Assembly: GCA_965226025.1 (NCBI GenBank)
Contig: CBDDCD010000001.1
Coordinates: forward strand, 970,104-1,034,103
Source of the DNA: Candidatus Moanibacter sp.
GTDB taxonomy: Bacteria; Verrucomicrobiota; Verrucomicrobiia; Opitutales; UBA2987
Reading direction: 5' to 3'
Length of the DNA stretch: 64,000 bases
Every line of letters begins with the position of its first letter. Positions within the stretch are counted from its first letter, which is position 1. The position numbers and the translations under genes are program-made. Below are positions 54,984 to 59,262 of the stretch, piece after piece. Below the pieces are notes generated by a model. That model saw only the letters and a program-made list of their open reading frames with translations, was not told the DNA's origin and did not search any database.

Positions 54984-56375
54984 CTAGTCGGGACCCCATT
55001 TCTTCAGATAGTCGCCGAAGAATTCCGCCGGCGATGGCACGCGTTCCGGGATTGGCGTCGAGACCCAAGTGTAGTTAAGAAAATGTCTCCAGTCGATATT
55101 GTCGGTGGAGATATTTCCCGCCCAGGAACCACAACCGAGACTATCCGTGGTCGGAAGGCCGCTTCCCCAGCCACCGCTGTTGCCGGCGGTGTGACCCATA
55201 TTGCATACGACACGGCCGACGTTTGCCTTGATTGCCAGTTCCTCTTGCCGTTCCTCCAGATTGCTGTGAAGCGATACCGAATGTCCCTCCCCCGAGAAGC
55301 GGTGCATCTCTTTCGTCCGTTCGATCATTTCGCTGAAATCGGTCCACTTCCACACAGTCAGCACGGGAGAGACCTTCTCCCCTGAGAAACGGTCTTCGGG
55401 CCCCGGCTTTAATCCGAGCACCATGATGACACGAGTCCCCTTGGGGACTTCGATTTTCGCCTGCTCAGCGATATAGGATGCCGGTTTTGCGACAACTTCC
55501 CGATTCAAGTGGCGTCCGTCCGGCCAATAGTACCTACGCAGCGCTTCTCGCTCTTCTGTGTTGCACAGATAGCAACCCTCCGCATTGAGGGCCTCGAGCA
55601 TGTCGTCGTAGATACACTCCTCGATAGCGATGGCATTTTCGGAAGAGCAGGAAGCCGCGTTGTTGGCCGTTTTCGACTTCACAATCTTAGCGGCCGTGGA
55701 GGCCAGATCGACCGTCGAATCGACAATCGAGACGACGTTTCCGGCACCCACCGTATGGCAAGGCTTGCCCGCCTCGTAGACAACGCGCACCAAGGCGGCG
55801 CCGCCTGTGGCCACCGCGAAATCGCAGCGCGCCATCAACTCGCGCGTCTTTTCGTGGCTCGTTTCTCGTATGCATTGCAGGAGGTCTTCGGGCGCTCCAA
55901 TTTTCCGCAGCGCGCTTCTCCCGTGTTCCACCGCCAGCCACGAACTGCCCTGGGTTCGCGGATGCGGCGAAACAATCATCGCGTTGCGAGTTTTCAACGT
56001 GCTCAATCCTATACAACAGACCGTCGATTCGGGATTTGTGCAGGGAACAACGCAGGCGATAACCCCCATCGGTTTGGCGAAGATCTTCAAGCCTTTTTCC
56101 TTATCCTCCTTCACCAGGCCACAGGTCCTGGCTCCAACCTGGTCACGCAAAGTGCCCAACGTCTTGGTCCAGATCTTTGCTACCTTGTCCTCGTAAACCC
56201 CAATTCCACCCGATTCATCGACCGCCGTTCGGGCCAATTCCTTCCGGGTCTCCTCTTTCTGCCACTGCCATCCCGCCGCCAGGACCATTTCATCAACCTT
56301 CTTCTGCGGCCAGAACTCGACCTCACGAAACGCCCGTCGTGATCGTTGATACATCTCCTCTATGTTGTCCTTCAT
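54984..56375 (-). CDS. CoA-acylating aldehyde dehydrogenase
   Basis: PMGVIACVVPCTNP, SPHPR, ATGG, GAGN, ASCSSEN catalytic Cys, GEKVSPVL, LGCGSWAGN. Confidence 0.9.
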   Translation of the reverse strand: MKDNIEEMYQRSRRAFREVEFWPQKKVDEMVLAAGWQWQKEETRKELARTAVDESGGIGVYEDKVAKIWTKTLGTLRDQVGARTCGLVKEDKEKGLKIFAKPMGVIACVVPCTNPESTVCCIGLSTLKTRNAMIVSPHPRTQGSSWLAVEHGRSALRKIGAPEDLLQCIRETSHEKTRELMARCDFAVATGGAALVRVVYEAGKPCHTVGAGNVVSIVDSTVDLASTAAKIVKSKTANNAASCSSENAIAIEECIYDDMLEALNAEGCYLCNTEEREALRRYYWPDGRHLNREVVAKPASYIAEQAKIEVPKGTRVIMVLGLKPGPEDRFSGEKVSPVLTVWKWTDFSEMIERTKEMHRFSGEGHSVSLHSNLEERQEELAIKANVGRVVCNMGHTAGNSGGWGSGLPTTDSLGCGSWAGNISTDNIDWRHFLNYTWVSTPIPERVPSPAEFFGDYLKKWGPD

Positions 56376-56377
56376 TC

Positions 56378-57403
56378 CTAATGCCTCCCACTTTTCCGGG
56401 TGGGATCATCGATTTCCTCGTCGATGGAGAATCCGCTACCTTTGAGTTTCTTACGCTTTTCCAATGTCTCCTTCCATTCATCGAGGGAGTGAATCTGCGC
56501 CGGAACAGCCGTTTTCCCGCGATCGGACAGCGGCGGTACGGGCCGATCTTCGGGTCCATCGTAATCCTCTTTCGGCGTCAGCGTTTCGCCCAGACGGGAG
56601 TACCCCTCCCGTTCCATCTCTTCGATGAAATGAGCGCCCGCTCCGAATGATCGCGTGACCGCAATAATCGTCCACATCGCCTCCGGTGTGAACCCGAGAT
56701 CCATCATGGTCGCGCCGGTCGCGCCGAGAAGGTCAAGATCCACCTCTTCCTCGAGTTCCTGCGCAGCCCTGACGATCGCTTTCATGAAAGCGACATTCTC
56801 TCCCGCAACGCCCAATTTCTCCGCGCGGGCAAAGATGCGTTTAGCTGCCGGATCTTTCAACATCAGGTTCGAGTAGCCCAGAGCCTCCCCGGACGTCTCT
56901 TCATTTACGAGAATCCTTGCCATCTCTTCCATCGATTTTTCTTCCCTCTCCGCCCGGTAAAGGTACTCCTGAAGCACTTTTCCAAACGCTTCATAGGCAC
57001 CGTAGGCATGTCCGAAAGCAAGGATTGAACTGCCGCAAGCCTGCGTCAGAAAAGTCTTCGAACGGCCCACCAGACGCGACATCACGGCGGGCATGGAAAG
57101 GCCATCTTCGAGGGAGAGAATCAGAATGTAATTCAACATCTGCTCTTCTTCCAGGGTCGGTATTCTTGCCTGAAAATCGATGAAGAGTATATCCACGACG
57201 CCGTATCCCTGCTCCACCAGTTCGGTCGTGTCATAGCCCCGCGAGACAATCCGGTGGATATTCTTGTAAGCGACCTCGGATACCCATTGAAAGGGAGGAC
57301 GGTCGGCATTAAGCGGCATTGTTCCATATTCGCGGTCCATGTAATCATACGGCAATCGCGAATCGGCAAGGTTGCCGATCTTCTTCCGGTCTATATCACC
57401 CAT
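56378..57403 (-). CDS. Citrate synthase/citryl-CoA lyase-like protein (divergent subunit)
   Basis: W.SEVAY...IVSRGYD..EL start and C-terminal RSFGAGAHFIEE ..Y.GPEDRPVP, paralogous to the adjacent gene. Confidence 0.7.
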   Translation of the reverse strand: MGDIDRKKIGNLADSRLPYDYMDREYGTMPLNADRPPFQWVSEVAYKNIHRIVSRGYDTTELVEQGYGVVDILFIDFQARIPTLEEEQMLNYILILSLEDGLSMPAVMSRLVGRSKTFLTQACGSSILAFGHAYGAYEAFGKVLQEYLYRAEREEKSMEEMARILVNEETSGEALGYSNLMLKDPAAKRIFARAEKLGVAGENVAFMKAIVRAAQELEEEVDLDLLGATGATMMDLGFTPEAMWTIIAVTRSFGAGAHFIEEMEREGYSRLGETLTPKEDYDGPEDRPVPPLSDRGKTAVPAQIHSLDEWKETLEKRKKLKGSGFSIDEEIDDPTRKSGRH

Positions 57404-58317
57404 TTTTTGAATTCTCCTGTTTCTTTCTGTTTTTTTGCGTATTCCTGCCTCTCTTCCTGAGTCGGGACCGGCCTGTCTTCCGGCCCGACATACTTGATCA
57501 TGGAGAGATCCAGCATCTGGGTCATGGGTTCATTCCGTGAAGCCGCCCATGCTCGTCCCTTCTTCTGTGTGTAGACCGCGTGCGCAGCACAACTGTAACC
57601 ACGTACCACGCTTCCGATACACCAGGCGGCGTTGGGTGAAAAACCGGTATCGCAGAGCGCGGTGTTCCCGGCTCCGACACAGTTCACGGGCACGTAGGAG
57701 CGGCCCTCCTTCTTTCGGCGTGCGTGAAAGTGCTTCTCCAACGCTCTCTGCAGTTCGAGATAGACCCCGTCGATCTCCAATTCTTCCTGTTTCAGATGGG
57801 TGGGTTCCGCCCTCGGGTCGCCGTCGCGGTGCTGCGGCTGCCCCATTCCCATGACCGGAACACCGTTATCCATGTACTCGTCAACCAGCGTCTTGGCCAT
57901 TTCGTCGATCGTTTTTCCCTCCTTGCGCGCTCGCTCCAGATACTTGTTCATCATGTACCCGTGCGCCGCCCCTGGTCCATGAGCGCTTCCGAAGGTCATA
58001 ACGGCCGCCGCCACCGCGGCCGGCAAGTTCGGCCGGCCCGCCGTCACGGCAATGGCGGAAGCCGCTGATGGAGACATTGAGTGCTCCATAAATTCGCCCA
58101 TTTCATATTTCAGCATCTTCTCCTCGGGCTCAGTAGGGATGCGCCCCTGAAAGAGCACGAACATAGCATCACTGAAGGAATACCCTTCCTCCGCCAATTC
58201 ACTCAGGTTGTAGCCTCGGAGAACCGTCTTCTCTTCCGTCTTGTAGGAGATCGCCGTCTTCCGTCTTAACAGGGGCTCTCTTTCCCTTCTGATTTCTTCC
58301 TCTCTCCCGTCTTTCAT
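57391..58317 (-). CDS. Citrate synthase/citryl-CoA lyase-like protein
   Basis: KTAISY...VLRGYNL.EL, EHSMSPSA, FGSAHGPG, GMGQPQH..GDPR, RGYSCAAH. Confidence 0.8.
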   Translation of the reverse strand: MKDGREEEIRREREPLLRRKTAISYKTEEKTVLRGYNLSELAEEGYSFSDAMFVLFQGRIPTEPEEKMLKYEMGEFMEHSMSPSAASAIAVTAGRPNLPAAVAAAVMTFGSAHGPGAAHGYMMNKYLERARKEGKTIDEMAKTLVDEYMDNGVPVMGMGQPQHRDGDPRAEPTHLKQEELEIDGVYLELQRALEKHFHARRKKEGRSYVPVNCVGAGNTALCDTGFSPNAAWCIGSVVRGYSCAAHAVYTQKKGRAWAASRNEPMTQMLDLSMIKYVGPEDRPVPTQEERQEYAKKQKETGEFKKWVI

Positions 58318-58368
58318 TACCTCAGCCTTCTCTTTCTCTTACTCCTTCCATTGCCCTTTCGCCGATCA

Positions 58369-59262
58369 TCACACACGCCGGTCCGCGATCGCTTCAAAAG
58401 TTTTCTGTATCAACTCCTCGGCCTTCGGTCGAATCCGGCAGATCTCGGCAAATAACAGATCCAGGACAAAGTCCCGGGGCACGTTGGAAAAAATCTCGCA
58501 GGAAAAGGGATCCCGATCAGATACGCCGATCAGTGTGTCGTCCGCCACCTCCCCCAAAGGCGATTTGATAAATCCGGTCAGCGCCACTACGGTTGCTTTC
58601 TCCCTCTTCGCGATTTTGGCGGCATAAACCAAATCCTTCGTCGCCCCCGAAAAACTCATGCCGAAAAACACATCACCCGTTTTCAAGGTTGCGGCGCGAA
58701 TCGCCATGGGATATCCCTCATTGTAGGCCGCCGAATAAATCCCTACACGGCTCAGGCGATAGTTGAAACCGTGGGCCAGCGCGGCCGATCCGGCGATTCC
58801 TCCCACCAACACGAACCGAGCACGAGCCAGGCACCGGGCGACTTTCTGCAGAGCCTTGCGATCAAGCAAATTGACCGTGTCGCGCAGATTGGACCGCATT
58901 TTCTCCGCATGGTCCGTCACTGAATCGGTATGTCCAGCCCTGCCCGCCCGGTCCGCCGCACCCAGCTCCTGCGCCAGCAGGACCTTGAAATCCTGGAATC
59001 CTGCACACCCCATCTTCCGACAGAATCGGATGATCGTTCCGTAACCCAACGCGCTGACCTGGGTCACCTCTGTTATCGAGAGGTAGGCAGCTTCGGGATT
59101 CTCCAGAAAATACTCACCAACCTTTCGCTCAGCTGCGGTTAAGGAATTTCTCAGTATGCTCAAGCGAAGGGAATAGGAACAATCATGCAGAGAGAACTCC
59201 GGATCTTCCGAATCAGTCGTCTTACCTCTAGCGGATCCCAAGGACTGCGTTTCAGATGTCAT
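58369..59262 (-). CDS. RpiR/MurR-family transcriptional regulator (HTH + SIS)
   Basis: LTAAERKVGEYFLENP, TIIRFCRKMGCAGFQDFK, SFSGATK. Confidence 0.93.
   Translation of the reverse strand: MTSETQSLGSARGKTTDSEDPEFSLHDCSYSLRLSILRNSLTAAERKVGEYFLENPEAAYLSITEVTQVSALGYGTIIRFCRKMGCAGFQDFKVLLAQELGAADRAGRAGHTDSVTDHAEKMRSNLRDTVNLLDRKALQKVARCLARARFVLVGGIAGSAALAHGFNYRLSRVGIYSAAYNEGYPMAIRAATLKTGDVFFGMSFSGATKDLVYAAKIAKREKATVVALTGFIKSPLGEVADDTLIGVSDRDPFSCEIFSNVPRDFVLDLLFAEICRIRPKAEELIQKTFEAIADRRV

Follow-up and report, generated by a model that had tools for sequence, protein, structure and literature searches.

The window analyzed here is a stretch of 64,000 nucleotides from contig CBDDCD010000001.1 of Candidatus Moanibacter sp. 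Four intact open reading frames (ORFs) on its minus strand form a tight cassette, which encodes a regulator, two paralogous proteins with the fold of citryl-CoA lyase (CCL), here called CSL-A and CSL-B, and a CoA-acylating aldehyde dehydrogenase (ALDH):

58369..59262, minus strand: RpiR/MurR-family regulator with HTH_6 and SIS domains, 297 amino acids (Pfam)
57391..58317, minus strand: CSL-A, citryl-CoA-lyase-fold protein, 308 amino acids (Pfam Citrate_synt)
56378..57403, minus strand: CSL-B, degenerate citryl-CoA-lyase-fold paralogue, 341 amino acids (Pfam Citrate_synt)
54984..56375, minus strand: CoA-acylating ALDH of the SauS/SucD type, 463 amino acids (Pfam Aldedh)

The regulator gene lies upstream, 51 nt from CSL-A. 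CSL-A and CSL-B overlap by 13 nt and CSL-B is separated from the ALDH gene by 2 nt, which confirms the tight linkage described in a first-pass annotation made from the sequence alone. The regulator matches HTH_6 (PF01418, 57 bits) in its N-terminal part and SIS (PF01380, 41 bits) in its C-terminal part, while the Citrate_synt family (PF00285) is matched by CSL-A with 66 bits and by CSL-B with 37 bits. A scan of positions 54600-59950 for promoters and terminators returned no signal exceeding the shuffled expectation.

We mapped the catalytic positions of the two CSL proteins by hidden Markov model alignment to the solved CCL structure 6hxp and by an alignment of 81 sequences that included distant relatives. 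CSL-A retains H113, R169 and R239, which are equivalent to His274, Arg329 and Arg401 of citrate synthase, as well as H246; its segments SAH113G and G-M-G-Q160-P-Q-H-x-x-x-D-P-R169 are intact. The catalytic aspartate (Asp375 in pig citrate synthase, within N-V-D-G) is missing from both proteins. Its position is taken by Val214 in CSL-A (N212-C213-V214-G215, compared to N-V-D-G of CCL) and by Leu226 in CSL-B (D224-L225-L226-G). Only the first histidine of the catalytic pair His274/His320 is found in CSL-A, with Gln160 at the position of the second, and neither is in register in CSL-B, where the first is displaced by two residues (GH132AYG) and the second has no equivalent. CSL-B also carries Ala186 in place of Arg329, in a 'DPA' segment with no histidine. 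The loss of the N-V-D segment from both proteins, and the presence of the HG and G.G....DPR motifs in only one of them, had been noted by eye in the first-pass annotation, and the alignment to 6hxp bears out both observations. In the wider set of CCL-like representatives, the equivalent of His320 is kept in 60 out of 68 and that of Asp375 in 45 out of 67. Since most of these relatives retain both residues, the alignments indicate that the loss is a trait of the CSL clade and not of the superfamily. The earlier proposal of a non-citrate chemistry is thus strengthened, and a Claisen condensation by CSL-A/B appears unlikely because the catalytic base is absent. In one related locus, a complete cassette is followed by a third CSL paralogue of divergent sequence (L100:9048-10013). 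It is 31% identical to CSL-A, keeps the His320 equivalent and has Ala at the position of Asp375.

Despite these replacements, the fold and the size of both proteins are those of CCL. The profile matches to 6hxp in the Protein Data Bank have E-values of 2.7e-22 for CSL-A and 9.5e-15 for CSL-B, and the best NCBIfam matches are 'citryl-CoA lyase' models, with 119.7 and 96.2 bits, respectively, compared to cut-offs of 193-212. The AlphaFold2 (AF2) model of CSL-A, built from a diverse alignment, reached a predicted local distance difference test (pLDDT) of 93.4. When this model was searched with Foldseek, CCL 6hxp ranked first (TM-score 0.80 by target), followed by the CCL modules of ATP-citrate lyase and then by citrate synthases.

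We compared the cassette with 80 related loci, in which ORFs were clustered and the presence of CSL-B and ALDH was counted by tblastn. Homologues of CSL-A are 78-91% identical across phyla and are carried by Opitutales, Planctomycetota, Chloroflexota, Desulfobacterales, Paracoccaceae, Acidiferrobacterales, SAR324 and others. Identity to the homologues is 60-82% for CSL-B and 62-90% for the cassette ALDHs, and the closest relatives of the genes in the window are found in metagenome-assembled genomes (MAGs) of Opitutales. Within a cluster library built at 50% identity, CSL-A and its family are nearly isolated, with a gap before CCL-like proteins at 30% identity. CSL-B follows CSL-A in 78 of the 80 loci, so the pairing is not due to chance. 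The model of the CSL-A/CSL-B complex has an interaction prediction score from aligned errors (ipSAE) of 0.81, a mark attained by 58 out of 80 solved complexes and by 2 out of 110 mismatched pairs; none of the three controls scored above 0.00. The runs share at least 79% of the contacts, and the partner pLDDT is at least 82. Conserved pairing, overlapping genes and the complex model all support a predicted CSL-A/CSL-B heteromer, in agreement with what the first-pass annotation had suggested. In it, CSL-A is likely to be the catalytic subunit and CSL-B, which has a C-terminal extension, its likely non-catalytic partner. Longer, fused versions of CSL-A were not found at E <= 1e-20, a negative that counts as weak evidence by the tool's own rating.

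The core gene order in the related loci is CSL-A, CSL-B, optionally PhnW, ALDH and a HAD hydrolase. All 38 loci whose flanks extend for at least 5 kb upstream and 6 kb downstream contain both CSL-B and ALDH, which supports the earlier idea that the CSL pair is coupled to an acylating ALDH. Only two adequately flanked loci (L079 and L083) are devoid of ALDH, and no alternative acyl-CoA-forming gene was found in their vicinity. Two loci of a Syntrophobacter MAG (L004 and L005) host genes for CoA-transferase A/B in place of ALDH, beside HAD and CSL-A/B. This variant fits an acyl-CoA substrate, in that the transferase would form the same acyl-CoA from a carboxylic acid. The same two loci also hold a B12-radical-SAM protein, a carrier of the major facilitator superfamily (MFS) and a family III CoA-transferase.

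The ALDH comparison proposed in the first-pass annotation placed the enzyme near SauS and SucD. In NCBIfam its best match is the SauS model NF047625 (465.8 bits, under the cut-off of 600), followed by AdhE and EutE-type models with 353 and 271 bits, and the PhnW-linked members of the family likewise score under the SauS cut-off (491 bits). The nearest solved structure is SucD 8cei (268 bits across residues 4-453). In the full-length alignment, Cys243 of the ALDH lies opposite Cys242 of SucD, within an N-x-x-x-C-S/A-S-E motif, as expected of a CoA-acylating ALDH. The structural study of SucD (PMC10249356) assigns Lys70 and Ser243 to the binding of the acyl moiety's distal carboxyl. Lys71 and Ser244 occupy these positions in the window ALDH and are invariant in all 52 cassette ALDHs, whereas Ala stands at each of the two in the AdhE structures that were aligned. 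Judged by these residues, the ALDH does not resemble an acetaldehyde enzyme, because it keeps the anion-binding Lys and Ser of SucD where AdhE has Ala.

A survey of the neighbouring genes, also proposed in the first-pass annotation, revealed that phosphonate genes recur around the cassette. Families detected over their NCBIfam cut-offs are PhnW-AepZ (415 bits), PbfA (725 bits), PhnA (479 bits), PhnE and PhnS2/T2/U2, the ABC transporter for 2-aminoethylphosphonate (AEP). PhnW is found in 44 of the 80 loci when counted by clustering, while tblastn with a single exemplar undercounts these diverse genes and finds only 32; PhnA adjoins the cassette in 7 of the 80 loci. Other recurrent neighbours are an HpnZ-like 'phosphonate-catabolism-associated' alcohol dehydrogenase, phn_DUF6, PhnD-like binding proteins, PHO4/PhoU, GlpT-like MFS carriers, pairs of MtmB-like proteins and a Janus/Ocnus protein. 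Among the 36 loci flanked on either side by 5 kb or more, 31 have a phosphonate marker and 27 an enzyme that makes phosphonoacetaldehyde (PnAA). Around the 80 loci, none of the recurrent gene families is a sulfonate family. PhnX and PhnA over cut-off were found in none of the five tested genomes with PhnW and CSL, all of which are incomplete MAGs. Taken together, these data make us confident that the cassette is real, widespread and tied to phosphonate catabolism, a context that the first-pass annotation had missed; its proposals of a heteromer, a non-citrate chemistry and a coupling to ALDH are supported.

Additional genes accompany the cassette in some lineages. In three loci (L041, L076 and L097), the CSL pair is separated from PbfA or PhnW by tandem MtmB-like genes of the non-Pyl methylamine methyltransferase family, which may serve the demethylation of N-methylated aminophosphonates. 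The Janus/Ocnus-family protein, which is phosphohistidine-phosphatase-like, follows HAD in nine loci (for example, L098:15805-16347), and NudE-like Nudix, ASCH and DUF4886 proteins are likewise recurrent downstream.

The regulator in the window has both the HTH_6 and the SIS domain. The SIS-domain regulator highlighted by the first-pass annotation is specific to one lineage: RpiR is found in 9 of the 80 loci (Opitutales, Puniceicoccaceae and Planctomycetaceae), while other lineages have LysR or XRE-cupin regulators. Here, the RpiR/SIS protein probably controls the cassette in response to a phosphorylated or phosphonylated ligand. In RpiR-type relatives the gene order is CehA-like metallohydrolase, RpiR, GlpT-like MFS carrier, CSL-A, CSL-B and ALDH, and these relatives carry an HpnZ-like gene (L031 and L038), PhnA and a PhnX-like gene (L033) or a PhnX-like gene (L024).

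The HAD hydrolase that follows ALDH in most lineages (for example, L067:13445-14179) has F-D-F-G-Q-T as motif I, with Gly at the Asp+2 position, whereas its nearest solved relatives are D-x-D phosphatases. This difference suggests that the cassette HAD is probably not an ordinary phosphomonoesterase. Asp+2 is also absent from PhnX and from dehalogenases. The Opitutales relatives of the present genome, too, are devoid of the cassette HAD. A PhnX-like hydrolase of the TIGR03351 type occurs in five loci (L024, L033, L076, L077 and L081) and in 11 out of 40 genomes. It is 73-83% identical across MAGs of Opitutales, Sedimentisphaerales, Anaerolineales, Paracoccaceae and deltaproteobacteria, and hence is unusually conserved, like CSL-A.

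PnAA is the common intermediate in the breakdown of AEP, hydroxy-AEP and hydroxyethylphosphonate. We propose as the leading reading, at about even odds, that the cassette converts PnAA via phosphonoacetyl-CoA, which the CSL-A/B heterodimer would split into acetyl-CoA and phosphate. In a first step, the SauS/SucD-like ALDH would oxidize PnAA to phosphonoacetyl-CoA, using CoA and NAD(P)+. The product would then be bound in the CSL-A site of the heterodimer, with CSL-B as the structural partner that completes the dimeric site. There, Arg169 and Arg239 would hold the phosphonate in place of the carboxylates of citryl-CoA, and His113, the equivalent of His274, would stabilize the enolate of the acetyl-CoA thioester as the leaving group. 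Breakage of the C-P bond would finally release acetyl-CoA and phosphate. The base Asp375 and the acid His320 would be dispensable, and a negatively charged Asp beside the phosphonate would be unfavourable; the loss of both residues would be explained by a C-P cleavage chemistry that needs neither. In other lineages, HAD may act as a phosphoryl acceptor, in the recycling of a phospho-enzyme or as a parallel phosphonatase, while the clade of the present genome would manage without it. It is improbable, in our judgement, that CSL-A/B passes the phosphoryl group to an enzyme histidine or another acceptor instead of water, with Janus/Ocnus in nine loci and, in 33 of 40 genomes, a HAD that has no Asp+2 acid taking over or recycling it. 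If this were true, CSL-A/B would represent a phosphonatase that has the citrate synthase fold and works through a covalent phospho-intermediate, possibly conserving the energy of the C-P bond.

The cassette in the window is a reduced subtype, composed of four genes, of the RpiR type and flanked by copies of an insertion sequence (IS). Two features next to it are:

59911..61699: 1.8-kb IS copy encoding a 492-amino-acid DDE transposase (Pfam DDE_Tnp_1), just upstream of the RpiR gene
53280..54853, plus strand: convergent genes for UgpA-like (N-terminally truncated) and UgpE-like permeases of an organophosphate ABC transporter (NCBIfam), listed as context only, with no membership of the cassette implied

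The IS at 59911-61699 sits in place of whatever once preceded the regulator. It is one of three direct copies in the window (11007-12833, 30559-32386 and 59911-61699), which are 99.8-99.9% identical, and a recent expansion of this IS seems to have rearranged these loci. Further copies flank a phosphonate island on contig 3 and occur just past the end of the window (L023 and L007). The UgpA-like permease matches positions 56-294 of the 295 of its NCBIfam profile, so that about 55 N-terminal residues are missing, while the UgpE-like permease is over the cut-off with 378 bits. The truncated ORF is 194 bp away from an IS110-family transposase (51599-53086), and no gene for a binding protein or an ATPase is adjacent to the permeases in the region 51098-54005. 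This Ugp-type transporter operon is probably disrupted. A set of genes for sugar-acid catabolism at 43856-48195 (inositol-dehydrogenase-like oxidoreductase, gluconate/galactonate-dehydratase-like enolase and DHDPS-family aldolase) appears to be unrelated to the cassette.

The phosphonate island on contig 3 (approximately 2825498-2836411; 2484-13411 of L023) is the second in this genome and lies between copies of the same IS. It hosts an orthologue of the CehA-like metallohydrolase (63% identity), Ugp-like ABC permeases split by the IS, an HpnZ-like dehydrogenase (287 bits), a PhnX-like hydrolase (TIGR03351, 166 bits compared to a cut-off of 219; motif I D-L-S-G-T) and PhnA (TIGR02335, 447 bits compared to 408). 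No PhnW over cut-off was detected in the genome (best PhnW-AepZ match 163 bits, compared to 361), nor was PhnY (TIGR03250, best match 280 bits, compared to 636). The genome returned no orthologue of the cassette HAD either, and the GlpT-like MFS carrier of the RpiR-type relatives was not found with the query used. The genes on contig 3 therefore suggest that the organism is equipped for phosphonates, while the local link from the cassette to a source of PnAA is missing here.

Several observations weigh against a cleavage of phosphonoacetyl-CoA by CSL-A/B. We infer each step of the pathway, and the heterodimer model may have scored well through its resemblance to the solved dimers of citrate synthase and CCL. 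The nearest Opitutales loci (L025 and L028) are without a phosphonate marker within 10 kb, and in the window no PhnW, HpnZ-like gene, transporter or HAD adjoins the cassette, which has IS copies at its flanks. The net reaction is the same as that of the published route from PhnW through PhnX and acetaldehyde dehydrogenase to acetyl-CoA (PMC9324843), with no evident energetic advantage. Finally, an orthologue of HAD or of the PhnX-like protein is present in 39 of the 41 genomes with the CSL pair, and this hydrolase without Asp+2, rather than CSL-A/B, could be the enzyme that cuts the C-P bond. A HAD-type hydrolase (the cassette HAD or, in the present genome, the PhnX-like protein of contig 3) would then produce acetaldehyde and phosphate, ALDH would form acetyl-CoA, and CSL-A/B would have another role with acetyl-CoA or a regulatory one. 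Such an acetaldehyde route is consistent with the absence of Asp+2 from the cassette HAD, as in PhnX, and with the distribution of the PhnX-like protein, which occurs in 6 of the 8 HAD-less genomes and in 6 of the 33 genomes with HAD, although the HAD-less genomes stem from no more than about two independent lineages. We nevertheless regard it as rather unlikely. The Lys and Ser that hold the distal carboxylate in SucD are present in each of the 52 cassette ALDHs, whereas the acetaldehyde-specific AdhE enzymes have Ala, and the ALDH scores highest on SauS (466 bits, compared to 353 and 271 for the AdhE and EutE-type models). No role would be left for CSL-A/B, although no other proteins of the cassette are as conserved. 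In addition, CSL-A/B have lost the base for the use of acetyl-CoA, and the variant with CoA-transferases would find no explanation.

The SauS match also raises the possibility of a sulfonate pathway, in which ALDH is a SauS orthologue that converts sulfoacetaldehyde to sulfoacetyl-CoA, and CSL-A/B desulfonates the latter to acetyl-CoA and sulfite. The chemistry is analogous, a TauE-family gene lies 5 kb away in one related locus, and phosphonate markers are absent beside the cassette in the closest Opitutales loci. Against it, the SauS score is under the cut-off both here (466 versus 600) and in the PhnW-linked members (491), phosphonate and not sulfonate families recur in the 80 loci, and RpiR-type relatives carry HpnZ-like, PhnA or PhnX-like genes, so we see only a slim chance for a sulfonate substrate. 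We consider it very doubtful that CSL-A/B is a thioesterase or a CoA-transfer enzyme that releases phosphonoacetate from phosphonoacetyl-CoA for PhnA. The hydrolysis of a thioester is part of the normal cycle of citrate synthase, PhnA lies beside the cassette in 7 of the 80 loci, and the present genome has PhnA (447 bits) with no PhnY over cut-off. However, the five incomplete MAGs with PhnW and CSL yielded no PhnA, and a thioesterase acting after an acylating ALDH would throw away the thioester, only to duplicate PhnY. To an ordinary CCL or citrate synthase we give almost no credence: the family matches in Pfam and NCBIfam, together with the fold, point in this direction, but the NCBIfam scores are far under the cut-offs (120 compared to at least 193), both subunits have lost the equivalents of Asp375 and His320, and no genes for citryl-CoA synthetase lie nearby. 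The decarboxylation of malonyl-CoA derived from malonate semialdehyde, which is chemically analogous, was rejected since the neighbours are phosphonate-specific.

Phosphonates account for a large share of marine and sediment phosphorus, and few routes for the cleavage of the C-P bond are described: C-P lyase, the hydrolases PhnX, PhnA and PalA, and oxidative routes of the PhnY*/PhnZ type. A literature search of incomplete coverage returned no paper on phosphonoacetyl-CoA in catabolism or on a citrate-synthase-fold protein in phosphonate degradation, and the only mention of phosphonoacetyl-CoA that we found is as a hypothetical product in a preprint on biosynthesis. Neither a 2023 review nor a 2025 study of the genomic context of AEP clusters mentions a citrate-synthase-like protein or a CoA-dependent route. 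The first-pass annotation, too, could not assign the genes to any described pathway. If the proposed cleavage of phosphonoacetyl-CoA by CSL-A/B is true, thioester-activated C-P cleavage by a citrate-synthase-fold heterodimer would be a new mechanism, and a very conserved and widespread pair of misannotated 'citrate synthases', with about 80% identity across phyla, would gain a function. Metagenomes of sediments, of anaerobes and of Verrucomicrobiota/Planctomycetota would also be scored differently for the use of phosphonates; many of them would otherwise be called AEP non-degraders.

Compared to known systems, the CSL proteins share fold, size class and dimeric state with Ccl of Hydrogenobacter thermophilus (6hxp) and with the CCL module of ATP-citrate lyase, and CSL-A has the equivalents of His274, Arg329 and Arg401. 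Unlike CCL, they form an obligate pair of paralogues, both with C-terminal extensions, in which Asp375 is replaced by Val (CSL-A) or Leu (CSL-B) and His320 is replaced by Gln (CSL-A) or absent (CSL-B). Moreover, the pair was never seen beside genes for citryl-CoA synthetase and adjoins an acylating ALDH, usually in phosphonate clusters. The ALDH resembles SauS and SucD (8cei) in being CoA-acylating and in having the catalytic Cys and the Lys and Ser pair for the distal anion. It differs from them in its SauS score (466 compared to 600 bits) and in having no sau, xsc or succinate-fermentation neighbours. With the PhnW-PhnX and PhnW-PhnY-PhnA pathways, the proposed route would share the entry enzymes PhnW and PbfA, the transporters, the intermediate PnAA and a C-P bond cut beta to an activating carbonyl, while the genomes tested have neither PhnX nor PhnY over cut-off alongside the cassette. 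The activation itself would set them apart, as the CSL route would proceed via a CoA thioester and the PhnX and PhnA routes proceed via a Schiff base or a metal-bound carboxylate.

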